64,000 nucleotides of DNA from IMG/VR virus record IMGVR_UViG_3300033064_003894, positions 1 to 64,000 of that record. The stretch is one strand, 5' to 3'. Under the pieces are notes generated by a model. The model had not been told where the DNA came from and searched no databases. It worked only from the letters and a program-made list of their open reading frames with translations. Within the stretch, counting starts at the first letter, position 1. Each line of letters opens with the position of its first letter. The DNA comes from a virus. This document shows, in pieces, positions 1 to 63,812 of this stretch. Position numbers and translations under genes: made by a program.

Positions 1-67
1 GGCAATAGAATAATCGGGTTCAGGTAACTCAGTAATAGTTAAATTTATTTTCTTTCCTTTGAACGGG

Positions 68-418
68 TTATGCACTAGGTTTAGAGATTCTCTCTACAAT
101 GATGGCTTGCCATTCTTCATTTGTGTACCGAGCTTCGCTTAGAATTGAAGAACAGCACAAAAGTGCGACAAAAAGGACAAGACCCGATAGCGTTGCAAAT
201 ACACAGCTAACACCTTGTTTAGTATTCATATTAAATTCATCCTTATTGAATTTAATGCATCCGAAAATTGAAATCAAAAGGACAATGGCTGATATTATTA
301 TAATATAAGGCAATACCACTATTGCTGTTTGAGCAGCTGACATGGATTGAATAATCTCTGCTTGTATTAAAGCGTCCCAGTTAATTTGTTCTTGCATTGG
401 TTCTCTCATTGTTTCCAT
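68..418 (-). CDS. hypothetical membrane protein (2 TM helices)
   Basis: ORF with two long hydrophobic stretches; co-directional with upstream genes. Confidence 0.6.
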   Translation of the reverse strand: METMREPMQEQINWDALIQAEIIQSMSAAQTAIVVLPYIIIISAIVLLISIFGCIKFNKDEFNMNTKQGVSCVFATLSGLVLFVALLCCSSILSEARYTNEEWQAIIVERISKPSA

Positions 419-617
419 TTGATTCCGCGTGCATCCTCCGCAGCCGCTCGATCTCGGCGGCTTGGTCGGTGATGTGGGCGCGGATCGTCAGCGACGGATT
501 CTCGTTACGACCGATGCGGAGGCGGGCCCTGTCCCACGCCTCGTTCGCGTCCTCGAAGGCTTGCTCCACCTCGTCCGGCAGCGTCGGGGATTGGGTATCT
601 TTGGTGTGTTCACTCAT
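381..617 (-). CDS. small hypothetical protein (MSEHTKDTQ...QAAEIERLRR), paralogous ends with 614..1003
   Basis: True start taken at ATG 617, which overlaps the TGA of 614..1003 (ATGA); shares N- and C-terminal segments with the upstream gene. Confidence 0.65.
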   Translation of the reverse strand: MSEHTKDTQSPTLPDEVEQAFEDANEAWDRARLRIGRNENPSLTIRAHITDQAAEIERLRRMHAESNGNNERTNARTN

Positions 618-1006
618 TGTGCAGCCTCCGAGCGCAGGCGGGAGAGTCCGGCTGCGGCCATCTTGCGCCATGACCCCTTGTTGCCGAGTCCGCCGCGAGC
701 CTTCTCGTCCATCATCAGCACCCACTCCAGCGCCACGATCTGGCCTCGGCGGTGGGCCCCACCGTCTACTGCAATCCATTCCAGCACCCGACGCAGCCGC
801 ACGATCTCGGCGGCTTGGGAGGTGATTCCCGCGATCAGCGAGTCACGCGCAGGCTTCACGATGTTGCACAGTTCGCAGCGGTAGCACGAGACGTGGCAGC
901 CGCGCTCGCAGCCGACGCGCTCAAGCACAATGCGCAGCGCCTCCGCGAGTTCAGGCGGCCAGGTGGTAGTCGAGGGTTGGGTATCTTTAGTGTGTTCACT
1001 CATTGT
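592..1006. repeat. dispersed direct repeats: ~29 bp ttgggtatcttt(g/a)gtgtgttcactcattgt at ~592-620 and ~978-1006; also cgcagccgc(t/a)cgatctcggcggcttgg at ~438-464 and ~792-818
   Basis: Read directly; single mismatches; they encode the shared gene starts and the QAAEIxRLRR segments. Confidence 0.85.
614..1003 (-). CDS. hypothetical Cys-rich protein (MSEHTKDTQ...QAAEIVRLRR)
   Basis: ATGA overlaps at both ends; CERGC/CYRC/C cluster. Confidence 0.65.
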   Translation of the reverse strand: MSEHTKDTQPSTTTWPPELAEALRIVLERVGCERGCHVSCYRCELCNIVKPARDSLIAGITSQAAEIVRLRRVLEWIAVDGGAHRRGQIVALEWVLMMDEKARGGLGNKGSWRKMAAAGLSRLRSEAAQ

Positions 1007-1221
1007 TTTGCTCCGTCTAGGAATGTCTCAGTTATGAAATCTGGGTTGCCTGTGCCTAGAAACTCATCAATGCCTTTGGCGCATCCTAGCGCGACGATCT
1101 GGTTAAACGACCCGAGTTCATCTTGTCGTAGTGTGAGAATACCGGCTAGGGCACCGTTGATGAATACTGCAACTTGACAGTGTTGTGTGGTTGGGTTTCT
1201 GTAGTTAAGTGTGATTTTCAT
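1000..1221 (-). CDS. small hypothetical protein (MKITLNY...)
   Basis: ATG at 1221 within ORF 1000..1506; stop overlaps next ATG. Confidence 0.55.
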   Translation of the reverse strand: MKITLNYRNPTTQHCQVAVFINGALAGILTLRQDELGSFNQIVALGCAKGIDEFLGTGNPDFITETFLDGAKQ

Positions 1222-1274
1222 CTTGCCACGTTTTAGAGTTGTAGGTGCCGGAGGCCGTAGCCACCGGCGTTGTG

Positions 1275-1595
1275 TTACTTCTGGTGCGTTCCCTCCACGG
1301 CGCGTGCTTCGCGGCCAGCCGTGCGCTTGTTGAGCCAGAGCAGCGCCGTCTCCAGGTGAGTCAGCGCGATGGCGTTCTCGCGGCAACTGAACTTGGAGGC
1401 TTGGTAGTACGCGATGCGCTGGATTGCGGCAGCGATCACACCCTCCACGAACGCGCCGTTTGGTTCGATGCGCTCGGCGTCGCGACCCAGAGGGCCGTTC
1501 TGCCATTCGATGCTAATGCCCGTGCCGGACACCGAGCCGCCAGCGGGGTTCCCGTCAGCGTTGTTGTTGTTTTCGCAGGTGAGGTTTTGGTTCAT
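1275..1595 (-). CDS. tad1: Tad1-family anti-defence sponge (Thoeris gcADPR / cyclic oligonucleotide binding)
   Basis: IEWQNGP...NG...QRIAYYQASKFSCRENAIALTHLETALLWLNKRTAGREARAVEGTHQK matches the Tad1 signature I.FQ.G...HG...RL..FQ...F..RENA.ALTH.EEAL.W.N.R...R..R.V.GT..K. Confidence 0.85.
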   Translation of the reverse strand: MNQNLTCENNNNADGNPAGGSVSGTGISIEWQNGPLGRDAERIEPNGAFVEGVIAAAIQRIAYYQASKFSCRENAIALTHLETALLWLNKRTAGREARAVEGTHQK

Positions 1596-1945
1596 TTAGT
1601 AACTCCGATGGCCGCGCACACGGCGGCGAGGTGGGTTGCGGTGGGGGCGAGCATGGTTTCCACAACAGACATTTCGAAGCAAGGGCTACTCGCGTCGAGC
1701 CTGTTGATGAACTCAACTCCGTAGCGCCGACGCTGCTCCAGCGTCATCGCGGCGACGAGCGCGGCGTAGGTGTCGAGGGAGTCGGGGCGGAGTATGAGCA
1801 GGACGCCGGAAGTCCATTTCCCGAACCACGCGATGTGATTCTCAGACTCGTAGTCATTCACTTGCCAGCAGCGATCATGTAGCAGCACACGGCAGCAGTC
1901 GGCGAGGAGTTCGGCGGGAGTCTTGGTGGTGGATTCGTTACTCAT
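1592..1945 (-). CDS. hypothetical protein (MSNESTTKT...)
   Basis: ATG 1945 overlaps end of 1938..2162; stop overlaps tad1 start. Confidence 0.6.
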   Translation of the reverse strand: MSNESTTKTPAELLADCCRVLLHDRCWQVNDYESENHIAWFGKWTSGVLLILRPDSLDTYAALVAAMTLEQRRRYGVEFINRLDASSPCFEMSVVETMLAPTATHLAAVCAAIGVTK

Positions 1946-2162
1946 TTCGGTGCTCCGGGGCAGGTGCAACAAGGCAGACATGGACAGTACGACTATCGTG
2001 GGGTTCCCATAGACGCCATCCAGCCCTAGTCTTTGTCCACTCCAGCCCAGGTTTGCCGCAGTATCGACAGGACTTGGGCTCCCACTCGTAGAGCGGGACA
2101 TCCTCCCCGTCAATATTACTATCAAAGCCCTGCCCACTAAGCCAGTCGGCCATTTCTCCCAT
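1938..2162 (-). CDS. small Zn-binding phage protein (MGEMADW...CRYC...HVC)
   Basis: CxxC plus HxC ligands; TGATG coupling to upstream gene. Confidence 0.65.
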   Translation of the reverse strand: MGEMADWLSGQGFDSNIDGEDVPLYEWEPKSCRYCGKPGLEWTKTRAGWRLWEPHDSRTVHVCLVAPAPEHRNE

Positions 2163-2587
2163 CAGACCACCTCCCCGGCCAGCGGCTCGTCGAGGGCGGC
2201 GCGGAGTTCGGCGGCGCAGGAGTTCAGGCCGTTACAGAATCCTTGCTCCCCTTGTGTAGCAGCGGGGAAACTTGCCGACGCCTTCCACCTCCCAACCAGC
2301 GCCCTTATCGTGTTGAGTTTATGCGCCGCCTCTTCTCGCACTTCTGCCATCTGCCGCTCCCACGCGAGCGCGGCGGCGCTGATCTGGCGGCAGACTTCCT
2401 TGGGTTCGCCGGACAGATGCACCTCGCGGATGGTGGTGTTTGCCGACGAGCCGTAAACAATAGAGCGCCCGCAGTGGCCTACTACGGACAGGCCAAGGAT
2501 GGGGTGTAGATAACTGGACACCGCGCCGTGGACGGTGAGGACCCACTCGGGGCCGGGGTGGTCGGGTTGGTGTTCGGTATCGTTCAT
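2162..2587 (-). CDS. hypothetical protein (MNDTEHQP...)
   Basis: ATG 2587 overlaps TGA of 2584..2817. Confidence 0.6.
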   Translation of the reverse strand: MNDTEHQPDHPGPEWVLTVHGAVSSYLHPILGLSVVGHCGRSIVYGSSANTTIREVHLSGEPKEVCRQISAAALAWERQMAEVREEAAHKLNTIRALVGRWKASASFPAATQGEQGFCNGLNSCAAELRAALDEPLAGEVV

Positions 2588-2817
2588 GCGGGCAGTTGGG
2601 GATTCGGATGATTCTGGGCTTCTGTCGGATGATTGTCGGATGGTTGTTGCTGGGTGCTCGGGCAGGGATTCGGGTGGAGGCATACGCGCTTGCCGTCTAC
2701 CATCGTGTAGGGGCCGGGGCAGCAGCGGGACCGCTGGTAGGCGTGCCACGCTGCTGAACCTACAGAAATCTTTCCCTCTCTGACGAGGCGTTCGACGTGG
2801 GTTTCGGTATCGTTCAT
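2584..2817 (-). CDS. hypothetical protein (MNDTETHV...)
   Basis: AGAGGA SD upstream; first gene of GC-rich island. Confidence 0.55.
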   Translation of the reverse strand: MNDTETHVERLVREGKISVGSAAWHAYQRSRCCPGPYTMVDGKRVCLHPNPCPSTQQQPSDNHPTEAQNHPNPQLPA

Positions 2818-2879
2818 TTCGTGTCCTCTGTCATGATTGATTTGTGTTTCTTATTGTTAAGGATTTTATCCATAAAGGT

Positions 2880-3272
2880 TTATCCCATATTTTTATATAG
2901 TTTTGTTGATCCCAGTTGACTGAAATTTAGCTTAAGGCCCCTGCGTGACATTTCAATTAGCAAGTATTTGAATGAACTAACATTTGCTTTCCTTGGATTG
3001 TCTCCACCATGCCCGTAATAGCTATATCCATTGTAATAAATAAACGTCACAATGGTATATAATAAATCAATATTATTAATTTTTTCTATCTCGCGAATAA
3101 TACCTAGCCCCATACTCCAGACAGGCTTAAGGCCATTAATAGAAATTTCCTCATCAATACTTATATTTCTTATTTGGTGCTCTGCCGCTGATATGACTAA
3201 CATTCTATAAAATGCTGTTTCGTATTGTATATTATCCAATGTAGAATAATTAGCCACGGCTCTTTTATTCAT
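2880..3272 (-). CDS. hypothetical protein
   Basis: ATG 3272 overlaps end of upstream gene. Confidence 0.55.
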   Translation of the reverse strand: MNKRAVANYSTLDNIQYETAFYRMLVISAAEHQIRNISIDEEISINGLKPVWSMGLGIIREIEKINNIDLLYTIVTFIYYNGYSYYGHGGDNPRKANVSSFKYLLIEMSRRGLKLNFSQLGSTKLYKNMG

Positions 3273-3693
3273 TGTCCTCAAGTCCTCGAAGCTTATCCAT
3301 AACGTTTTTCACCTTCACCTTAGAATCCTCCGAACGTGTAGGTCTGTTCCCATATCTGCGAGGAATAGGTGAACTGCGCTCAGCTTCAACAGATGCGATC
3401 CATCTTGCCATAGTACGGTCTGAAATGCCAAGAGAGCTTGCGGCAAGCCCTCGATGCCAATTTACAGAGGCTAAAACAGATAACATTACTCCATTTTGTA
3501 TTTCATCGTAGGTTAATCCAATTAAAGAGCGCAGCCTTGTAGGAATGCTTTCGAGCCAGTCAGCTTCACAGAACCCACACTCTCGCGGATCGTGACTCTC
3601 TGTGTAGGATTTCTGGCAATGATTGCACCCCTCTTCAGCCCCACCGCATTCGTACGGGTGTTTATCCATCTTAATGCTAACGTGTCCGATCAT
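3265..3693 (-). CDS. Fis-type HTH DNA-binding protein with N-terminal Cys/His cluster
   Basis: NWHRGLAASSLGISDRTMARWI resembles Fis/HTH_8; CNHC and CGFC; GGAGG SD. Confidence 0.6.
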   Translation of the reverse strand: MIGHVSIKMDKHPYECGGAEEGCNHCQKSYTESHDPRECGFCEADWLESIPTRLRSLIGLTYDEIQNGVMLSVLASVNWHRGLAASSLGISDRTMARWIASVEAERSSPIPRRYGNRPTRSEDSKVKVKNVMDKLRGLEDNE

Positions 3694-3726
3694 CTCTTAA
3701 CCTCCAGTCCGCGCTTGTGAATTTAT

Positions 3727-4110
3727 TCATGACCTTATTACCTCCAAAATAGAAACTGACCTCTGCTCCCATGTTGCAGAAGCTAAAAGAATAAGCTGTT
3801 CAGTTTGACTGTCTACGCCAGTAAAACTCTTTCCGGTATATACGTATTCTTGTAAAATCTTAACCCACGTATGACCTTTGTCTTCATTAATAATCTTCTG
3901 CTCTACTAATGCTAGGTCCATTAAATTATGCAATGCGAAAACAGAACGAGCATACTTCTCACCATCTTTTGGTTTAGCTACAGCAGCAGGATAACTTGCT
4001 CCTATTAATTCACTCCACCCCCAATCGGGTTGAAGATAACTAGCAATTTCTATTGCATGTGAGCTTGTTAGTATTTTGCTTAGCGATGTCAGCATGTTAT
4101 TTTCGCTCAT
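3727..4110 (-). CDS. hypothetical protein
   Basis: ORF in co-directional run. Confidence 0.6.
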   Translation of the reverse strand: MSENNMLTSLSKILTSSHAIEIASYLQPDWGWSELIGASYPAAVAKPKDGEKYARSVFALHNLMDLALVEQKIINEDKGHTWVKILQEYVYTGKSFTGVDSQTEQLILLASATWEQRSVSILEVIRS

Positions 4111-4120
4111 TTGTATCTTT

Positions 4121-4369
4121 TTATAAGGTGAAGCATACTGTCAGTACCCACGCCAGAACTGCGCCTAGTAAGAAGTAGAAAAGGTTTGCCATTATTTTAA
4201 GGTTACGGTTATGCTTCGACATTTTTTCCTCGTAAGCATTAGTTCTTAAAGTGTCAAACCGTTCATTTATTCGACCAACATGATAAGACAATGATTCCCT
4301 AAGATTTTTACTTTTTTCCTTCAAATAGGCAATTTCATTTTCAAACTTCTCTTCCTTTTTCTTTTCCAT
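4121..4369 (-). CDS. coiled-coil protein with C-terminal TM anchor
   Basis: AGGAG SD; hydrophobic C-terminus; GGTATAAA motif at 4404-4411. Confidence 0.65.
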   Translation of the reverse strand: MEKKKEEKFENEIAYLKEKSKNLRESLSYHVGRINERFDTLRTNAYEEKMSKHNRNLKIMANLFYFLLGAVLAWVLTVCFTL

Positions 4370-4460
4370 TTGATCTCCTATTGCACGGTATTGTGCTTAA
4401 GTATTTATACCTGGTTGTCATATGGTTCTTAAGACTGTAGCTATCCACTGGAACTCAATA

Positions 4461-5015
4461 TCAAAGACCCTCTCTGGATACATCTTCAGTCTTGTCTTTC
4501 ATTTCTGCAATTATCATGTCGTGCGCATATACAGTTTCAATCTTGTAAATCTCATCTTTAACATACTTAGAGATAGCCGCTTCTCCTAGCCCATCTAAGG
4601 CCCTCACATCTTTAAGTGCAGAAAGTCTACCAGATTCTAGAGACTCTCCTATTTCAAAGCTTAGCTTAGATATGCACGAAGTAAGGCTCTCATTATTCAT
4701 GTACATTTCATGTCTGATGCGAGATATCGTGTGATGACATTCGTCTAATTTGTCATTGACCAACCCCTTTTTAAGCGCCTCAATCTGACTTATTTTTAAA
4801 GCCTCATCCGTAATGCGCCTCATCAAAAGATCCGTGTTAGCTTTCTTTAAAGCTTCTATGTCGCGCACTAGATATTTAATTGATGTCTCCTTTGTTTTCA
4901 TATATTCCAACGCCTCTTCGGAGCACGTGCAATTGCGGCATTCGCCTTCTTCAAGCAAATTCTCTGCACATTCGCATTCCCCAAAGCCATCAAACCAATC
5001 AGGCATTCTAATCAT
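4461..5015 (-). CDS. hypothetical protein, N-terminal Cys cluster and coiled coil
   Basis: Promoter motif 5 nt upstream of ATG. Confidence 0.65.
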   Translation of the reverse strand: MIRMPDWFDGFGECECAENLLEEGECRNCTCSEEALEYMKTKETSIKYLVRDIEALKKANTDLLMRRITDEALKISQIEALKKGLVNDKLDECHHTISRIRHEMYMNNESLTSCISKLSFEIGESLESGRLSALKDVRALDGLGEAAISKYVKDEIYKIETVYAHDMIIAEMKDKTEDVSREGL

Positions 5016-5053
5016 ATCGAGTTATACCTTTTAAAAAATAAATTTATTTATAA

Positions 5054-5305
5054 TTAATCCTCTAGATCTTCGCCGTAAATTGGCTTAGGCTCTTTTGTCG
5101 CCTTTACCTTTTTCTTTCTGCAACGAGAGCACAAAGATTTTATAATAGACAAGACGCTATGCTTTGACGGATTATCATGCATACAGAACAGGCAGACAGG
5201 TCCGTCATGCAAATCGTCACTGTGACCAAAGATCCAGCACAACGGACGTTGATAAACAAACAGAATTCTATCTAAATAACAACCTAGCTTTTTGTGTATT
5301 TTCAT
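5054..5305 (-). CDS. small Cys/His protein (LCWIFGH...CLFC)
   Basis: SD AGAGGA; C...GH...CxxC motif common in small phage proteins. Confidence 0.6.
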   Translation of the reverse strand: MKIHKKLGCYLDRILFVYQRPLCWIFGHSDDLHDGPVCLFCMHDNPSKHSVLSIIKSLCSRCRKKKVKATKEPKPIYGEDLED

Positions 5306-5370
5306 TTTAGTCCTCTAGTCCTATCGGAAGCTTTATTTCTTTTGGTTTATGCTGCATTACGTATTATACC

Positions 5371-5392
5371 AAAAAGGGGGCTTTTAGGCCCC
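5371..5392 (-). terminator. intrinsic terminator after 5399..5719
   Basis: Minus strand GGGGC-CTAAAA-GCCCC then CTTTTT. Confidence 0.7.
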
Positions 5393-5398
5393 AGGAGA

Positions 5399-5719
5399 TT
5401 ACCGCTCTCTCGACTTCGAGTAAGAGTCGAGTTCTTCGCAGCGTAGGAACCCTTGGAACTTGGCAATCATTGCAATACCAAGTGTGGCGGCAGGTCGTGC
5501 GTTGTCACCGCACTCACCATTGAGGACTGACTTTGAGATTTGATTGAAGTCAAAGCCATCCTCTGAATCAAGAAGATTTACGTCTTTCAACATCACCTTA
5601 GTCTTCTCAGACAGCTCCTTAGGAGTGTTGCCTCTCGACGTTCTCCACCCAAACTCGATGAGTTCAAGAAGGGCGTCTGTAATCAACATCTGTTTTTTTG
5701 TAAGTAGCTCAGTTCTCAT
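5399..5719 (-). CDS. hypothetical protein
   Basis: Leaderless-type promoter, own terminator, GC-richer codon usage. Confidence 0.7.
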   Translation of the reverse strand: MRTELLTKKQMLITDALLELIEFGWRTSRGNTPKELSEKTKVMLKDVNLLDSEDGFDFNQISKSVLNGECGDNARPAATLGIAMIAKFQGFLRCEELDSYSKSRER

Positions 5720-5751
5720 CTGTATTTATACCGTCCTAGAGAGCTCATTTT

Positions 5752-6069
5752 TCATCCAAGAGACACTAGAAGCCCATCTCCATTAAACTGAGCTTTCATT
5801 TTCAAAAGCTGTTCAGAGCATCTTACCATCAGGGAAGTCTTCGGATAATCCAGTGGGGCCTCTTGACACCACTTAATAAAGTCATATATTGCATAAGCTT
5901 GGCCGCTACTAAAAGAAGTGTTATTGTATAGCATGTCTAGCCGTATTTCAGCGATCATCCCCTTTATGCTTGATGCCCTAGAGTAGTTACCTTCAGCATG
6001 CTCCAGTTCATATAGCTTTTCCCATCTATCAAGTGTTCTATTTAAAGCATCTTCTATTGAGTCATCCAT
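5752..6069 (-). CDS. hypothetical protein
   Basis: GGTATAAT 5 nt before ATG. Confidence 0.65.
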   Translation of the reverse strand: MDDSIEDALNRTLDRWEKLYELEHAEGNYSRASSIKGMIAEIRLDMLYNNTSFSSGQAYAIYDFIKWCQEAPLDYPKTSLMVRCSEQLLKMKAQFNGDGLLVSLG

Positions 6070-6131
6070 TAATAATTATACCGCAAAAAGATGTAAAAAT
6101 AAATGAATTCGTTTAAATAACGCGCAACCAA

Positions 6132-6398
6132 TCAAGGCCTAAGCTGTTTACTCATGATAATTTTAGTCTCCAAATTTGCCACGGCATCACGTTTGCCATT
6201 TGATATCAATATTTCGTCTATGCAGTCAATCAGGGCAATTACAACATGTTCATTCAGCATTTCTTGTGATAAAGAAACAATCATGTTGTCTTCGATACCG
6301 ATTACAGCCTCTTTTTTTAATAGGCTATATTTAACCATTATGCTTCGTAGTGCACTTAAGTTTCTAGGCAGATTACTCATCTTTTTTATTCCGACCAA
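6132..6398 (-). CDS. hypothetical protein
   Basis: ORF in co-directional run; true start may be MSNLP. Confidence 0.5.
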   Translation of the reverse strand: MVGIKKMSNLPRNLSALRSIMVKYSLLKKEAVIGIEDNMIVSLSQEMLNEHVVIALIDCIDEILISNGKRDAVANLETKIIMSKQLRP

Positions 6399-6891
6399 AG
6401 CAATATTTTTTAATCTGTGTTATTAGATTCTTACACTGAGTCTCAACATAGGCTGTTGTCTTTATAGTTTCGGTACCTCTGTTATGGTTAAGTACATTAA
6501 GAAACGAATACTCCTCTGACATAAGTGATGGGTCAGGAAGGTCATTATGATGCCTGCAGTCAAAGCCTATCCACCATCCTGGACCTAGTTCAGCGAATTC
6601 ATTAGAATATGTGATACTTCCATGTACATTAAAAAGAACGTTCATTGGTATAGAATCTTCTTCATTTGGTGTCTCACTCATTGAATGCAACAGTATTGGT
6701 ATAACCCCCCTGTCGCCTATTTTCTCTTCCATTACTGATCCTATATTTAATCCAATCAATGGCTCACTCTGCTCTTTTCCGTACAGGTAGTGTCCATTTG
6801 GTATGCTTACATATCCGCACCTGTGTCCCATCTCTGTGCCAATAACAACATAATCCATTCCAAGGTATACTTTACGTTTTTCTATTAACAT
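6373..6891 (-). CDS. conserved phage protein of unknown function (HRCGYV...VHG.ITY...WWIGFDC.H)
   Basis: Recognisable widespread phage motif set. Confidence 0.7.
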   Translation of the reverse strand: MLIEKRKVYLGMDYVVIGTEMGHRCGYVSIPNGHYLYGKEQSEPLIGLNIGSVMEEKIGDRGVIPILLHSMSETPNEEDSIPMNVLFNVHGSITYSNEFAELGPGWWIGFDCRHHNDLPDPSLMSEEYSFLNVLNHNRGTETIKTTAYVETQCKNLITQIKKYCFGRNKKDE

Positions 6892-7522
6892 CTTTAATTA
6901 CCTCATAGGCGGCCCCAACAGAACATAGTATTTTGTGTATGGAACCGTAATCATTTAATATTATATTTAGCAAAGCGTGTTGAACTTTTGCATCATATAG
7001 AGCAGTATGTTTAAGCGTGTTTTCATTCATCGAGTGCACTGCAGCTCTCTTTTTTATCTTGTAAAGGTCTTTAGCTTTATGTAGACTTTCAGAGCCTTGT
7101 CCAACCTTTATTTCTAAAAGAGGATAAAACAAAGAAAATAGATCTAAGCTTCTTATCTTTTTGAATGGATAGAGCTCCTCTCCAAACCATGAGCGTAAAT
7201 ATGGAAGGTCGAACTGTGTTGGTTGTGCCACTATTACGTGCTCAACGTCTTTATCTCTGTCTATATATTCAATGAGAGCAGAAGACATTTGTTCTTTTGA
7301 AATGCCTGAGAGAAGGCAACCTATCTGGTTGTAAGAATGCGCCTCTTCGTTAATATTCTGAAACCAAGACATGGTATCTTCATGCCATCTCAAGTTTTCT
7401 TCCTTGTAAAATAGTTCCATGTCTTCGTCATTGGAGGTAATCCCTATTGATATAACATCATTCATGAGTGGGTTAGGCCCAGAACACTCTATGTCTATAG
7501 ACAAATACTTTACTGGCTTCAT
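6872..7522 (-). CDS. DEDDh 3'-5' exonuclease (DnaQ/RNase T-like)
   Basis: Exo I SIDIECSG, Exo II FDLPYL, Exo III HTALYDA. Confidence 0.85.
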   Translation of the reverse strand: MKPVKYLSIDIECSGPNPLMNDVISIGITSNDEDMELFYKEENLRWHEDTMSWFQNINEEAHSYNQIGCLLSGISKEQMSSALIEYIDRDKDVEHVIVAQPTQFDLPYLRSWFGEELYPFKKIRSLDLFSLFYPLLEIKVGQGSESLHKAKDLYKIKKRAAVHSMNENTLKHTALYDAKVQHALLNIILNDYGSIHKILCSVGAAYEVIKDVNRKT

Positions 7523-7573
7523 TGTTTGTTATACCAACTTTGCTTATTATTTTGTTAAGAATATAATGATCAA

Positions 7574-8071
7574 ATGTCAAGCTTGAATAAAGCATACCTA
7601 TTCAATGGAATGTTCAAAGAGGCACTTAAGAATGTCAGGCCTAAACTTACTCAGGCCGAATTAGACAAGATACCAAGACAGCCTCCGATAGATAGGTCAA
7701 AAGGGATCCTAGCGGCAGACGACTACAATTGGAAAAATAAGGGTGCTACTCCTAAAGGTCCGGGTCTTTGGAGCAGAATAAAAAATAGAGGCGTTACTCA
7801 AGAGCAGAAGACCTTAATGTCTGGTCTTAAAGCTGGACAAGTAGAGCGTGCTCAGGCTCCTGCTCAGGCTCCTGCTCAGGCTCAGAGGACTCCTCTTGAT
7901 CCTACAGAGGTTGCATCAAGGAAGGAGAGATACAAGAGGTCTGTAGGTAAAGCTAAGCTTGGAAGATTCATTAAGCATCCAGGAACAATTGCGGCTGGAC
8001 TTGGATTAGGTGCTATTGGTGCTATTGGTGCGTATAATTTATCTAAACCCTCTAGTAAGCAAGAGTATTAA
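7574..8071 (+). CDS. basic protein with C-terminal Gly-zipper helix, probable internal virion protein
   Basis: K/R-rich; AAGLGLGAIGAIGAY; N-terminal FKEA; TATAAT 6 nt before ATG. Confidence 0.6.
   Translation: MSSLNKAYLFNGMFKEALKNVRPKLTQAELDKIPRQPPIDRSKGILAADDYNWKNKGATPKGPGLWSRIKNRGVTQEQKTLMSGLKAGQVERAQAPAQAPAQAQRTPLDPTEVASRKERYKRSVGKAKLGRFIKHPGTIAAGLGLGAIGAIGAYNLSKPSSKQEY
7849..7883 (+). repeat. 12-bp tandem repeat (tgctcaggctcc x~3) encoding AQAP
   Basis: Read directly. Confidence 0.9.
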
Positions 8072-52080: not shown

Positions 52081-54135
52081 ATGTCAAAAAAAGCATTCGA
52101 TGTAAATAATTCTGTAACTAGCAGTGAAACCATTTCGGTGTCTTCTGGAGCATTCCTAGTACAGCAAGAATATACAACTACAGGCTTTACAAGACTGTAT
52201 TTGAATGACAATGCAATAAAGGGCACAGACGTAACTGACATATCTGGATATGCCATAGGAATGTATTCTAATAGCGTTACTCCTGGGTCTAAGTTCCCAT
52301 GGAACGCATCTGATCCTGTAACAGGAAGATGCATAGAATTTAACGGAACCTCTAGTTATATAAGAGTAGACACAGTTGAAGGAATACAGGACTACAAAGA
52401 TTTCACGATAAAAGCTCTTGTATACCCAGATAGTGTCGCGTCTGAGAGTACTCTTTTTTGCTCGTCACGAGACGCCTATTCACCTTATAGATTATATATT
52501 GATAGCGGATATGTAAAGTTTCAATGGAAAGACCTTTCTGGAGTGACAACAACAAAGACTGGACACGCTATTTCTGATAATGAGCTATCCGCTCTATACC
52601 TCTCATTTGGAGAATCAGAAATAGTGTTTAAGAAGTCTGGACAGTCCGATATATCTTTTACTGGGTCTAATCACTATTTAAGACACACTAATGAGCCTAT
52701 ATATGTTGGTGGAGACGGAGACTCAAAAGACAACTATTTTGATGGCTTTCTAGGGAAGGTTCAGTATGAAAAAGTAGCACTAGGATCAACCACTAGCTTT
52801 ACTGTGTCTTCTCTATATGACGTATCTGTTCCGTATATAACTTCAACCGCTAGTATAGATGCAAACTATGTCCCGTATAGAGTTGATATAAGCAAATACA
52901 ATGATTCAAGAAACTGCTCATTGGCTTATCTAATATCAACTAATAGCGGATCAACATGGCTTACAAACACGTCATCATCTTGGGCGTCCACAGACGGGAT
53001 TTCCGACTACTGTGACCTAGGACACATAAATGCCATACTTGACCAGTTAACATGCGGAAGTTCTACTGAGCTTTCACTGCGCGTGTTTCTTAAATCAGAC
53101 GGGACAGATGGAGGAGGCATTCTGTCTTCATCTATTTCTTATATCTATGACAATTCCGTAACTTCATTTGACAATCCAGATGTTACTTTCGGAACCACTG
53201 AAAATATATTTAATTCTGGGTATGTTAGCTCGTCTATTCGGCCAGGAGATGTCCCAATAATATTTATTGGAGACTCCATCTCTGGCCCATTTACTACATA
53301 CTCACCATCTATTTCTTTTTCTGGATATGACGACAGAAATAGCATGATTAGGGATCTTGAGGTGTCATTCGATGGTCAGTTCTGCTCGTCTGATTTGATA
53401 ATATCCACCTCTGCTGACTCAGTAGAAAAATACTTATTCTTGAGTATTGGTGATAACGCAGGAGTCCCATACAGTGACTCTGGCGGATCAACCGTGTCAA
53501 TACGTGGACATTACGTTACAATTTCTTCATATGCAAATACTGGTGTATATGATTCTCCTACATTGTCAGTATTTGATATATCACGTGTTGACCCAATAAG
53601 TATTATTGATTCATATAAAAGCACATCATCAGGCCCAATAGAAGTGTCTCTTCCATCTGGCAGCTATAAGTTTGAATTAATACAGGAGGATGGAGGAGTA
53701 TTCACGATCTCAAAAACAATATCATCTGATGATCAGTTCAGCATAAATTCTCTTCCTCCTAAGAGGTCTTCATCTCAGCCGCTAATAAGCATAAATATTA
53801 TAGATGTAATTGTAGACCAGCTTTCATGCGTTAAAGGCGACACTCCAACGATATCTCTTTATATAGTAGATAAAAAGACAAGAATACCTAAAGACATAAC
53901 AGACTTTAATGTGTTCTTCAGACTAAAAGAGGCGTATGGAGATACCGTAATTGTTGACAGACAATGCTCAAATATACAACCATCGTACGGAAAGTGCTCC
54001 GTACAGCTAACTTCTGATGACACAAATACAAACGGAAAGTTCATTGGTGAGCTTAAATTAATAAAAATAAGCGGATCAGAGGAGGTAATCACTTCACTCC
54101 CTAGATTTATTTTTTACATAAACGACAGCTTCTAA
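52081..54135 (+). CDS. virion protein with LamG domain and C-terminal BppU-like domain
   Basis: IEFNGTSSYI, FTIKALVYP, YFDGFLGKV; KGDTP.I...DITD..V.F...GKC.VQLT..DT...G.F.GE. Confidence 0.7.
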   Translation: MSKKAFDVNNSVTSSETISVSSGAFLVQQEYTTTGFTRLYLNDNAIKGTDVTDISGYAIGMYSNSVTPGSKFPWNASDPVTGRCIEFNGTSSYIRVDTVEGIQDYKDFTIKALVYPDSVASESTLFCSSRDAYSPYRLYIDSGYVKFQWKDLSGVTTTKTGHAISDNELSALYLSFGESEIVFKKSGQSDISFTGSNHYLRHTNEPIYVGGDGDSKDNYFDGFLGKVQYEKVALGSTTSFTVSSLYDVSVPYITSTASIDANYVPYRVDISKYNDSRNCSLAYLISTNSGSTWLTNTSSSWASTDGISDYCDLGHINAILDQLTCGSSTELSLRVFLKSDGTDGGGILSSSISYIYDNSVTSFDNPDVTFGTTENIFNSGYVSSSIRPGDVPIIFIGDSISGPFTTYSPSISFSGYDDRNSMIRDLEVSFDGQFCSSDLIISTSADSVEKYLFLSIGDNAGVPYSDSGGSTVSIRGHYVTISSYANTGVYDSPTLSVFDISRVDPISIIDSYKSTSSGPIEVSLPSGSYKFELIQEDGGVFTISKTISSDDQFSINSLPPKRSSSQPLISINIIDVIVDQLSCVKGDTPTISLYIVDKKTRIPKDITDFNVFFRLKEAYGDTVIVDRQCSNIQPSYGKCSVQLTSDDTNTNGKFIGELKLIKISGSEEVITSLPRFIFYINDSF

Positions 54136-55523
54136 TTGTAATTAACTCTATATCCTGTTAAGACCTCATCGTTTAGCCTTGATGGAGTTGTAAGAAGCCA
54201 CATTATTCTTTCGAAAGGGACTTCTTTCTCAAACCCTTGGTCTGCGTTGTACCCGTCAGTAAACATTACAATTAGGTCTAATCCTCCTATCTCTCCGTTT
54301 TCGTATAATTCATTTATTCTTTTTAGTACTGGGCCGAACATTGTTCCTCCTCTACCAAAAGCTTTTTTAGGCAAATCATATTCGTCTCCAATTTCAGACT
54401 CATACTGAACATCTGTATCGAACATTATAAAATACAGTTCTGCATTATTGGTTTCACAAATTCCTTTAGCTTCAGATATAGCTCTTGTGATCTCTTCATC
54501 TGACATCGATCCGCTTGTGTCTACAGCAAACACAACGTAAGACCTGTTTGAGTACAATGATGGTAGGAAAACCTCTTGCCCTATTGATTTTCTAGATCTC
54601 TTTGACCAAGAGTAGTCTTCTTTGTCGTTTGATGCCATGCTAACCAATTTGGAGAGAGCTTCACGCCAGTCTATCTTTGCCTCATATATTTCGTTAAGTT
54701 CTTGGAAGTGAAGTCCAGGTATTATTCCAGCAGTACGCTCTCTTTCATTAGATAGAGTTGACCTCTCCATCCAATAGTTTTTCCATCTTTCTTGCTCTTC
54801 GTGACTCATTTCGTTAGTAGCAGGAAAGCTTATGTCTCCAGAATCACCGTATCTGTCCATGAAGCTCTTTGATGAAGATGACTCATGAGGACCCTTCCCG
54901 CCCTTCTTTCCATCACCTGATGAACCTTTTTGTTTGTACTTTAATTTGGAAGACTTAATTAATAGATTATACACAACTTCCGTAGTGTACGACCTCATGA
55001 ATTCTTCTTCTTTTACTACAGTGACTATCTCATTAAATTCTTTTAAACCTAGCATGTAAGGGATGCTGTAACCTAATACCTTAGAGAGTATTATATTTAT
55101 AACAATGTCTCCAGAAATATTCCATATCAAAGCATCTCTGTCATCCTTTCTTAGGGCATGAAGGTATACACAATGAAACAGCTCATGAAGCAATAGAAAC
55201 AGTATCCCCTTTGAATAATACACCTCTTTGCTATAAAAAGGACCTTTCACTTTTCCTTTTTCAGACGTATAGCAGTAATCCAGATACTTACCTAAATTAG
55301 TTATATTGAAATATATTGTTCTTTGTCCGTCCGTAAATGCAGGTGCATTTACAAACTCTTCGTGTTTAAATATTTTAACTATTTTGCAACCAAGTACAGC
55401 TGACGCCCAGTATGAATAGTTCTTTGCTAGGTAAACCCGTGCAGCTCCTAAGTATTTATTAAAGTCATCTTCTGATAAGTCTGTATTTATTAATAAAGCC
55501 TCATCTGGAATATTGACGCCCAT
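54132..55523 (-). CDS. DUF2201-type metallopeptidase plus vWA domain protein
   Basis: AFTDG, LLHELFH, WNI..D..IN, DW, YSW.., VDTSGSM (MIDAS), GRGGT.F, FTDG. Confidence 0.9.
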   Translation of the reverse strand: MGVNIPDEALLINTDLSEDDFNKYLGAARVYLAKNYSYWASAVLGCKIVKIFKHEEFVNAPAFTDGQRTIYFNITNLGKYLDYCYTSEKGKVKGPFYSKEVYYSKGILFLLLHELFHCVYLHALRKDDRDALIWNISGDIVINIILSKVLGYSIPYMLGLKEFNEIVTVVKEEEFMRSYTTEVVYNLLIKSSKLKYKQKGSSGDGKKGGKGPHESSSSKSFMDRYGDSGDISFPATNEMSHEEQERWKNYWMERSTLSNERERTAGIIPGLHFQELNEIYEAKIDWREALSKLVSMASNDKEDYSWSKRSRKSIGQEVFLPSLYSNRSYVVFAVDTSGSMSDEEITRAISEAKGICETNNAELYFIMFDTDVQYESEIGDEYDLPKKAFGRGGTMFGPVLKRINELYENGEIGGLDLIVMFTDGYNADQGFEKEVPFERIMWLLTTPSRLNDEVLTGYRVNYN

Positions 55524-56567
55524 TTACAAAACACTCCTCTCCATGTCCTGAGCTATGCCAAACTCTTTGGCGGTTTTAAGGTAATCCACTATTTTTCTAG
55601 TAATTATATGCCTCTTTCCTTTTATATCCCTAGCTGACCTTATAACAAAAGCTATAAGCTCTTTAGGTGCGTCAGCCAGCAACACAACGTTTTCAAATGC
55701 AGAAATGTCTTCTTGTTTTCTTCCTACAACCTCTACTACATTCTGAAGGCAGAAGAAAATTAATGCGGCATCTTTTTGCTTGTTTACTTCTTTAATAAGT
55801 TGAGGGTTTGCCAGTATCTCTTCAGGAGGCGGAACCTTCTTTGTCAGCTTAGTGAAAGCGGAAAACCTTGCCCCATGTTCTTTCCCGACTGATCCATAAA
55901 TTGAGTTCTGCGTGCCCAAATCTTCAATGTCTTCAAATGCATTCAATACGTGACTTACAAAAGTCCACGTTCTTGGAGTAGGGTATGCATAGAAGTCCTT
56001 AACCTCTTTTGATGGGATAGAAATAAGATCTTTAGGATTTGCTGCGATGAAGCTAACAACTTCATTTCTAATGTTTGAAGTAATTGCCCAATCTATCCAC
56101 TCTCGATGATTGCACTCTACTGTATAGTGTATAAATCTGTTCTTTAAAGGAAGAGGTAGCTCGTATCCAAACATACCAGCACCCTTCTGGTTACTTGCCG
56201 CACAAACAATAGTATCTGCAGGCAGACGCAACTCTCCGCACCGCCTGTCTAGAATAAGTTGATATGCTGCAGCGAGTGTTGCATTTGTTGCGTGGTTTAG
56301 TTCATCTAAAAATAGAATTGTTTTTTCTTTAAATGATAAGAATGATGGCGGGCACCATGTAGCATGACCGTTATGAACTACAGGTAGTCCTCTAATTTCT
56401 GTAGGATCTATCTGTGAAAGTCTTATATCTTGTACGTTATATCCCATCTTTTTCCCTGCTTCCCTTACGGCATCTGACTTGCCTATCCCTGGATGCCCCC
56501 AAAATATCATAGACATAGGAAGCTTTTTTGTAATAATGCTTATCATCTCATTTGTAGTTATTGCCAT
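55524..56567 (-). CDS. MoxR-family AAA+ ATPase
   Basis: Walker A GHPGIGKS, DIRLSQ.DPT..RGLP, Walker B LFLDELN, AASN, PLKNRF, PTPRTW. Confidence 0.9.
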   Translation of the reverse strand: MAITTNEMISIITKKLPMSMIFWGHPGIGKSDAVREAGKKMGYNVQDIRLSQIDPTEIRGLPVVHNGHATWCPPSFLSFKEKTILFLDELNHATNATLAAAYQLILDRRCGELRLPADTIVCAASNQKGAGMFGYELPLPLKNRFIHYTVECNHREWIDWAITSNIRNEVVSFIAANPKDLISIPSKEVKDFYAYPTPRTWTFVSHVLNAFEDIEDLGTQNSIYGSVGKEHGARFSAFTKLTKKVPPPEEILANPQLIKEVNKQKDAALIFFCLQNVVEVVGRKQEDISAFENVVLLADAPKELIAFVIRSARDIKGKRHIITRKIVDYLKTAKEFGIAQDMERSVL

Positions 56568-57274
56568 CTTTCGTCCATTTGCTGTATTCCTTTTAGTCCA
56601 ACGTCTACATGACCAGACTGACATTCACCGAGTCCGTTTTTCTTGATTATTCTTGAGAACCCTTTAAATGAACCATCTTCACTAAAAACTGTTTCACATC
56701 TAATAACAACATCTGCCCAAAAAGGGACTCTTTTATAACAGTCAATTATTCTTTCTCCTGTCCTTCCAGAAGCGAACTCATCCTTCATTTGAGCTGTTGC
56801 CACTATAATTGCATTAAGAGATCTTAATATGAACATAACCTCATCTATCATAGATGAAACCTCTGTCCACATTATAGTTGGCTCTATTTGAGAAGGGTTC
56901 TTTCTTGCGTACTCATCTTGAGCAAACTGAACCAATGTAGTAATTGAGTCAATTACAAGAGTTGGCTTTGCATATTGTTCTTTGCACCCCTCATAAGGAA
57001 TTTTAGACTTAACTGAAGTAGTGAGCGAGGCAAACTCTTTAATAACAAGTACTAGTTCTTTCCAATTTCTTGGACTATGGACTAACACGTCTTCATCATT
57101 TATATTCAATACATCATAGACCGTGGAAGCTCTTTGATCAAAGTCTATAATTACTGTTGGGCGTGTAAAATTAAATGCGTTAAATGTTTTTCCTGTTCCT
57201 GGTTCTCCATAATAAAGAATTGCTCCAGGGCAGGCTCTATCTATTTCTGCTAACTTTTTAAGTATCTTTGCCAT
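56558..57274 (-). CDS. AAA_24 / Sak4-like ATPase (RecA-fold annealase)
   Basis: YGEPGTGKT, IDFD, LVIDSIT, ATAQ, ADVVI. Confidence 0.75.
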   Translation of the reverse strand: MAKILKKLAEIDRACPGAILYYGEPGTGKTFNAFNFTRPTVIIDFDQRASTVYDVLNINDEDVLVHSPRNWKELVLVIKEFASLTTSVKSKIPYEGCKEQYAKPTLVIDSITTLVQFAQDEYARKNPSQIEPTIMWTEVSSMIDEVMFILRSLNAIIVATAQMKDEFASGRTGERIIDCYKRVPFWADVVIRCETVFSEDGSFKGFSRIIKKNGLGECQSGHVDVGLKGIQQMDERWQ

Positions 57275-63010: not shown

Positions 63011-63488
63011 TTAAATAGAAGATCAACAAATCAAGTGGTGGAAATTCTAAATTCAGGAGCATGCCCTGAACACGTTGTTCTATTCATTCAACATATTTTA
63101 CTATATAATTGCCATATCATCACAGATACAGAGATTTCCTTATTCTGCAGAGAGCAGCGCAACATATGCACCAGCATCGCCTCAGACATGCCTGTATTCA
63201 CTTGTGCGGCTACATAATATGAAAAGTGGCATCTCACTCACCTTTTGTATGAAAATCGATTACAGGGCATTACAGACGCGTTTAAGCGAATGTGCCATTT
63301 TTCGGCCCGTAAATTATATGCTAGTCTTTCTATCGAAGGTCTCTCGCACGCGTAAGAGCTGCACGCGCTCGCGTAAGAGTTAACTGTTAATTGTATGCTT
63401 GGTAGCTAGGTAGGAAACCCTCCTCTATCCTCCCCCCTATAGTCCCCCCTCCTTCCTCCTCCCTTTAATCCGCATGCACCATATTTTT

Positions 63489-63522
63489 AAAAATAAAAAT
63501 GGAACACCCGTGTGGATGTTCC
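63489..63522 (-). terminator. terminator for 63543..63812
   Basis: GGAACA...TGTTCC stem followed by ATTTTTATTTT on minus strand. Confidence 0.6.
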
Positions 63523-63542
63523 AAGCCCGATAGGCATTTGGC

Positions 63543-63812
63543 TTAGCCTTCGTCTTCGTCGTCCGGGCTCTTCGGGCTACTCGTCCGAGCTTTCTTGTCG
63601 GCAGCGCTCTTGCGGTTGAACAGGCGCGAGCCTCTCACTCCGTCGATTGCGTAGCCGCCTCCGGCGACGATCGCAGTTCCGATGGCAACGGCGACACCAA
63701 CGGCGACGCCGAGTCTCAATCCGGTGAGCAGGGTGTTTCCAATCCCGCCAGTCGCCAATCCGGATTCGGAAACGACAGCCGAGGGTTCGGTGGGAAGTTC
63801 GATTTCGTTCAC
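63543..63812 (-). CDS. small single-TM protein, GC-rich
   Basis: AAGGAG SD, GTG start, GVAVGVAVAIGTAIVAGGG; promoter motif at 63879-63886. Confidence 0.7.
   Translation of the reverse strand: MNEIELPTEPSAVVSESGLATGGIGNTLLTGLRLGVAVGVAVAIGTAIVAGGGYAIDGVRGSRLFNRKSAADKKARTSSPKSPDDEDEG

Follow-up and report, generated by a model that had tools for sequence, protein, structure and literature searches.

Tad1 (Thoeris anti-defence 1) proteins are sponges that bind the signal molecules of Thoeris and CBASS. The closest described members are the founding Tad1 of Bacillus phage SBSphiJ7 (142 aa; OM982674.1 110354-110782), CbTad1 from a Clostridium botulinum prophage (PDB 7UAV/7UAW/8SMD/8KBE-H) and CmTad1 (8KBB-D). 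All ten homologs tested by Leavitt et al. (2022), drawn from four clades, inhibited type I Thoeris, and eleven residues of CbTad1 were reported there to contact gcADPR. Li et al. (PMC10680739) assigned F82, N92, R109 and R113 of CbTad1 to the gcADPR/cyclic-dinucleotide pocket, and R90/T97 of CbTad1 together with C87, R88, A91, M92 and T95 of CmTad1 to the cyclic-trinucleotide pocket. The same study defined the hexamer interface of Tad1. A 2025 survey (PMC12393519) counts 1,587 IMG/VR homologs, of which 20 were tested, with Tad1s inhibiting CBASS and/or type I Thoeris.

We analysed the first 64 kb (the window) of a 139,837-bp linear IMG/VR contig, which is estimated to be 79% complete and has a GC content of 40.3%. 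Near its left end lies a gene whose product belongs to the Tad1 family. The reading that we favour, with a probability of about 0.82, is that this product acts as a short-form Tad1 sponge, sequestering Thoeris/CBASS signals, and that it reached the phage in a foreign 2.4-kb cassette. Homology to Tad1, a Tad1 fold in the predicted model and conservation of the site residues are evident in the data described below.

The tad1 CDS (1275..1595, minus strand) has an ATG start and encodes 106 residues followed by a TAA stop. Every motif quoted in the original prediction is found in this translation: NNNNADGNPAGG occupies residues 9-20, WQNGP residues 31-35 and NG residues 46-47, followed by R60, YQ (64-65), F69, CRENAIALTHLETALLWLNKR (71-91), R95, R98 and VEGT (100-103). 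The ORF and its motifs are confirmed as real. A Shine-Dalgarno-like GGAG, read from the sequence, is located 7 nt upstream of the ATG (1603..1606, minus strand), and the ATG itself overlaps the stop codon of an upstream 117-aa ORF (ATGA, 1592-1595). The overlap and the GGAG suggest translational coupling of tad1 with this ORF. The GC content by codon position is 0.61/0.48/0.80, the pattern expected for a real gene of a GC-rich source. Codon usage with a GC3 of 0.80 is far from the phage's own and could limit expression.

The phage is novel. Its giant ORFs of 1502, 889, 1219, 944 and 1607 aa (20037-44942) have no PHROG or Pfam match, so that the backbone is essentially uncharacterised. Most large ORFs lack matches in both collections. 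The sole landmarks are a weak portal match, a few tail-fibre-like domains, and an HNH endonuclease (phrog_1314, E 2e-58) that adjoins an ATPase (phrog_1297, E 9e-75) at 54132-56624 on the minus strand. A megablast search of positions 1-8000 against deposited phages returned a 34-bp chance match only. The tad1 gene is phage-borne, residing on a viral contig with a portal-like gene.

The Tad1 assignment is supported by several searches, and the similarity greatly exceeds what chance would produce. BLASTP aligns the protein to the SBSphiJ7 Tad1 with 49% identity over residues 21-106 (E 9e-28). The two proteins have in common the WQ/FQ-x-GP loop, the helical hairpin, the R.VEGTH.K tail and the character of a small phage-encoded protein, while the SBSphiJ7 Tad1 carries ~40 extra N-terminal residues and no GNPxGG motif. 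In phmmer searches against all PDB chains, only Tad1 is found at E <= 1e-9, with matches between E 4e-12 and 5e-10 (CmTad1 8KBB, E 4e-12; CbTad1 7UAV, E 3.5e-10), at ~30% identity to CbTad1/CmTad1. With a family profile built from 58 homologs, the Tad1 chains rise to E 2.6e-18 and 1.5e-16. PHROGs assigns the protein to phrog_2428 (E 1e-22), and tblastn against deposited phages finds 78 records, including the Tad1-annotated genes of Bacillus phages SBSphiJ7 and SPG24. The single Pfam match is the Acb2/Tad1 hairpin PF24729 at 28.3 bits (28.9 bits in the genome search), a marginal pass over the gathering threshold of 27 bits; the precomputed PF24729 domain is carried by all close homologs. The Tad1 homologs found are phage- and prophage-borne, lying on viral contigs and in MAG regions. 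Neither a Tad2 gene (PF11195) nor a second PF24729 gene was found in the contig. PADLOC gave no match, as expected, since it models defence and not anti-defence proteins.

The protein resembles Acb2 in its PF24729 hairpin. Acb2 also matches Tad1 in the logic of a hexameric sponge and in binding cyclic trinucleotides at a trimeric interface through phosphate contacts (PMC10680739). The protein described here, however, has a Tad1-type N-terminal sheet, and neither the PDB sequence matches up to E <= 10 nor the Foldseek matches at E <= 1e-3 include an Acb2 chain. The shared PF24729 domain probably reflects a distant relationship only. Related hairpins are also seen in larger proteins. The short-Tad1 profile matches the C-terminal hairpin (residues 168-228) of PhiKZ gp184 with E 1.4e-10 (PDB 8Y6V chain I), a minor capsid protein of the inner vertex-binding complex, and in PHROGs 23843 and 22140 (200-230 aa) the C-terminus is likewise a Tad1-like hairpin. 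The label 'putative structural protein' has been given to several homologs from Bacillus phages. The possibility of a Tad1-like domain packaged in virions may deserve attention.

The AlphaFold2 monomer, predicted from a 58-sequence alignment, has a pLDDT of 96 and a pTM of 0.83. DSSP assigns strands at residues 6-11, 17-24 and 27-31 and helices at 50-65 and 72-97. A Foldseek search of the PDB returns 20 chains at E <= 1e-3, and all those listed are CbTad1 or CmTad1, with TM scores up to 0.77; the next match has an E of 0.36. The HMM and Foldseek checks named in the original prediction both lead to Tad1, by PF24729, the PDB profile search and the structural search. VIA-align superposes model residues 1-106 on CmTad1 11-122 (98 residues, 1.9 Å, Z 10.3) and on CbTad1 13-125 (~100 residues, 2.4 Å, Z 10.3). 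Since the model superposes end to end on both structures, its N-terminal part corresponds to the Tad1 sheet.

Three elements can be distinguished in the model. Residues 6-31 (1503..1580, minus strand) form a three-stranded antiparallel sheet, where CbTad1 has four strands; the sheet contains the GNPxGG loop (15-20), and WQxGP (31-35) leads into the next loop. Residues 50-97 (1305..1448, minus strand) form a two-helix hairpin that bears R60, Y64, F69, N74, R91 and R95, as well as the cyclic-trinucleotide/hexamer residues C71, R72, A75, T79, W87 and K90. The C-terminal tail RAVEGTHQK (98-106; 1278..1304, minus strand) is the counterpart of the CbTad1 ligand lid (116-122) and aligns to the CbTad1 C-terminus without gaps, so that G102 corresponds to G120 and H104 to N122.

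The ligand sites of CbTad1 and CmTad1 can be traced through HMMER alignments (phmmer and profile) to the PDB chains. In the gcADPR/cyclic-dinucleotide pocket, CbTad1 F82 is replaced by Y64, and N92, R109 and R113 are kept as N74, R91 and R95. Among the further gcADPR contacts, F87, R78, G55 and G120 are present as F69, R60, G34 and G102, and N122 is replaced by H104, a histidine also found in the SBSphiJ7 Tad1. CbTad1 R57 corresponds to L36, a position that is non-basic in two validated members as well (V in SBSphiJ7, I in CmTad1). Of the ten gcADPR contacts that can be mapped, nine are therefore kept or conservatively replaced, and the tenth (R57/L36) is variable among validated Tad1s. For the remaining contact, CbTad1 H29, no counterpart is placed by sequence; its position probably lies between the first and second predicted strands, in a loop that is occupied here by the conserved GNP motif. 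The cyclic-trinucleotide pair R90/T97 is present as R72/T79, and CmTad1 C87, A91 and M92 correspond to C71, A75 and I76. At the hexamer interface, CmTad1 R88, T95, W103 and K106 are kept as R72, T79, W87 and K90, with changes at K96 (H80), Q98 (E82), E99 (T83) and M102 (L86). Judged by these residues, the gcADPR and cyclic-trinucleotide sites look intact.

To place these residues in the family, conservation is scored over 119 close homologs and 150 diverse representatives (P0121-P0270), 269 sequences in total. About 89-99% of the 269 sequences retain the pocket residues, and all eight scored pocket residues are kept in 129 of the 150 representatives (86%). R72, T79 and W87 behave differently: they are kept in 98% of the close homologs and in only 23-25% of the representatives. 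The three residues co-vary (Fisher p 7e-9 and 3e-13, values of a test that relatedness inflates). Retention in roughly a quarter of the representatives is at odds with the substitution rate of 6% given for the homolog set of PMC10680739. These patterns suggest that many natural Tad1s are gcADPR/dinucleotide-only sponges, and the protein described here is predicted to belong to a subclade that keeps both kinds of site. A homolog with substitutions in the cyclic-trinucleotide site is the 103-aa prophage protein of Mycolicibacterium mucogenicum CSUR P2099. It has GNPAGG, WQNGPLGR, EPNGAFVE and VEGTH in common with our protein, and a locus from the same IMG genome (L069) is 61% identical to it. 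At the cyclic-trinucleotide positions, however, it reads ...ASKYNA... in place of ...SCRENA..., whereas our protein keeps R72 and T79.

The N-terminus was originally described as atypical. This description does not hold, as the pattern D-GNPxGG…WQxGPLGR is conserved across a huge clade with a modal length of 106 aa. A word-indexed search of 5.8 billion clusters yields 3,580 homologs; among the best 119 of these, at 67-92% identity, 83 are exactly 106 aa long and 21 are 108 aa long. When 1.84 billion representatives clustered at 50% identity are searched exhaustively with HMMER, 2,793 clusters match at E <= 1e-3. At least 90% of sequences retain P17, G19, G20, W31, Q32, G34 and P35, and G34, within WQxGP, aligns with the ligand contact G55 of CbTad1. 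The GNPxGG architecture can already be found in Table S3 of Leavitt et al. (2022), in the M. mucogenicum prophage homolog and in a 117-aa homolog from an actinobacterial bin. Neither of these two rows carries the 'yes' that marks the named tested Opitutaceae homolog, a 104-aa protein with a different N-terminus. In the literature consulted, no evidence of a tested member of the short GNPxGG clade was found. The N-terminus is the normal form of a large environmental clade that was already present in the 2022 literature.

In longer relatives, GPLGR and EPNGAF are separated by an insertion that is often Cys-rich. In six clade members of 124-145 aa (P0132, P0150, P0168, P0183, P0216 and P0253) it spans ~20-40 residues, is rich in Cys and His and falls in the β4-α1 ligand loop. 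Such an insertion may elaborate the pocket lid by binding metal.

Compared to the crystal forms of CbTad1 and CmTad1, the protein has no counterpart of their first ~11 residues. This segment contains CbTad1 Q8, a contact to the 2',3'-cGAMP guanine (PMC10680739). Because the absent residues include a cGAMP contact, the cyclic-dinucleotide range is not predictable, and such spectra vary among validated Tad1s. The proposal that the ligand range may differ from that of Firmicutes-phage Tad1s can accordingly be kept only for cyclic dinucleotides; the sites for gcADPR and cyclic trinucleotides look intact.

Of the competing explanations, a shift in specificity survives best, and we regard it as unlikely. 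It holds that the Tad1 fold is retained and that the protein binds mainly CBASS cyclic oligonucleotides, or another TIR-derived signal such as His-ADPR or N7-cADPR, instead of gcADPR, its pocket being reshaped by the shorter N-terminus and by the GNPxGG loop specific to the clade. The missing counterpart of Q8 and the varied cyclic-dinucleotide spectra of validated Tad1s are in line with this, as is the probable position of the GNPxGG loop where the β2-β3 ligand loop of CbTad1, with H29, should be. The plasticity of sponges is also wide, with Acb2 homologs binding 3'cADPR and Tad2 homologs several signals (PMC12393519). Against it stand the nine preserved gcADPR contacts, which are nearly invariant in the clade, and the inhibition of type I Thoeris by every homolog tested in 2022.

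The surroundings of tad1 are unusual. The gene is part of a GC-rich (~62%) 2.4-kb island of eight co-oriented small genes (430..2817, minus strand) in a phage of ~40% GC. Nowhere else is the contig strongly GC-rich; the one other elevation is a minor spot of 54% GC near 63.5 kb (63251-63750). Most island ORFs have a GC3 of 0.65-0.80, compared to 0.29-0.31 in the flanking low-GC ORFs (68-418 and 2880-3281). Several of the island genes are joined by start/stop overlaps, and all are co-oriented with their low-GC neighbours. At 110 other loci with tad1 homologs, the GC content of the gene tracks that of its flanks (r 0.91), with a mean excess of +0.03 and a largest excess of +0.14. The excess over the backbone at our locus is ~+0.23.

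Both edges of the island can be located. On the right, the island starts exactly at the ATG of its first gene, which is preceded by an AT-rich spacer. A candidate native promoter, TGGWATAAAA, was considered for this region and rejected: the window has 3 copies (0.65 expected), none of them at the edge, where only a weak sigma-70-like site is seen (2860-2833). At the left edge (~432), a 78-aa ORF ceases to resemble the adjacent 129-aa paralog and continues into low-GC DNA. The two paralogous ORFs (381-617 and 614-1003, minus strand) both start with MSEHTKDTQ and are 38% identical over 62-73 residues; the shorter one looks as if it had been truncated by the left junction. A second suspected paralogy, between two ORFs starting with MNDTE, was discarded as they do not align.

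The other seven island genes have nothing credible in Pfam or PHROGs and no detectable relatives in the searches made. The 117-aa ORF directly upstream of tad1 (1592..1945, minus strand) is an orphan, finding no homolog but itself in 5.8 billion clusters and no Pfam or PHROG match; its single-sequence AlphaFold2 model was discarded (pLDDT 41). The 74-aa ORF downstream of tad1 (1000..1224, minus strand; GC 46%) has no family match, and a search of the ESM Atlas with the 141-aa ORF gave an uninformative top score of 0.76. When the island was compared to 192 related loci by tblastn and blastn, tad1 alone matched, at no more than 80% nucleotide identity, and no donor was identified. The DNA-level tad1 matches are mostly on GC-rich contigs. 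In a Tad1 protein tree, which has too few columns to resolve the donor and contains no strongly supported clade, the closest entries come from two contigs of low GC, in a group whose members are mostly GC-rich, and SBSphiJ7 lies on a separate long branch.

The island begins only ~430 bp from the contig end, and its GC excess is well above the 0.14 reached at other loci. Both facts could indicate an assembly artefact, in which a block from an unrelated GC-rich phage or bacterium was mis-joined near the end of the contig. The junction string was not found in IMG/VR, and the island and its backbone neighbours, used as queries against the available IMG/VR and JGI metagenome records, gave no match. 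Low-GC DNA is nevertheless present on both sides of the island, the right edge coincides with a start codon behind the AT-rich spacer, and all eight genes run in the direction of their neighbours. In exact-sequence look-ups, moreover, island and backbone proteins are each recorded from one JGI contig, with a length of 44,056 bp. They comprise an identical 117-aa island protein and variants of the 129-aa protein (128/129 identical), of the 74-aa protein (71/78 identical, with a 4-aa indel) and of the low-GC neighbour 68..418 (114/116 identical). Island and backbone proteins are present in Logan assemblies as well. The simplest reading of this would be that the island is shared by another strain of this phage. 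As the second contig carries variants of proteins from both sides of the junction, we consider a mis-assembly very unlikely.

Least credible of all is that the protein has no sponge activity, either because it is decaying as a passenger of the imported cassette or because its Tad1-like domain serves another, perhaps virion-associated role: the foreign codon usage, the Tad1-like C-terminal hairpin of the PhiKZ inner-capsid protein gp184 and the structural annotation of Bacillus phage homologs would agree with it, whereas the ORF is intact, with a Shine-Dalgarno-like site and apparent translational coupling, retains every conserved site residue and encodes a free-standing protein of the clade's modal length, not the C-terminal domain of a larger protein.

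We return to a short-form Tad1 sponge as the favoured reading. Its oligomeric state, ligand binding and inhibition of Thoeris/CBASS are what we infer from conserved residues, the predicted fold and analogy. As in CbTad1, CmTad1 and the SBSphiJ7 Tad1, the protomers would pair head to tail, and three dimers would assemble into a hexamer of D3 symmetry. The Thoeris signal (1''-3' or 1''-2' gcADPR), or else a cyclic dinucleotide of CBASS, would be enclosed in pockets at the ends of the dimers, with Y64 and R91 stacking the adenine, N74 reading it, and R60, R91, R95, G34, G102 and H104 holding phosphates and riboses. Two trimeric interfaces would bind cyclic trinucleotides via R72 and T79. With the signal sequestered, the host effector would stay silent and the phage could replicate. 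The gene would have entered the 40% GC phage within the compositionally foreign 2.4-kb cassette and now sits in a leftward block of small genes. The family claim of the original prediction is borne out by sequence homology, fold and binding-site residues, and the role it proposed, countering nucleotide-signalling immunity, is consistent with the same three lines of evidence.

A more speculative proposal is that the island is a recently imported, portable counter-defence cassette, in which some of the seven orphan genes encode new anti-defence proteins. We hold this to be doubtful. Within the cassette proposal, and sharing its low odds, the 117-aa ORF coupled to tad1 would be the leading anti-defence candidate. 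A narrower variant, in which the ligand spectrum of the short GNPxGG clade is unlike that of Firmicutes-phage Tad1s, is covered by the same tentative estimate. Anti-defence genes tend to cluster, and an island of orphan small genes is for this reason a concrete place to seek new ones. The foreign cassette is a more interesting lead than the Tad1 assignment itself.

With this locus, the Tad1 sponges assigned with confidence gain a further member, from a phage lineage in which hardly any genes can be recognised. The presence of such a sponge would imply that the host of this phage uses TIR- or cGAS-type nucleotide signalling.
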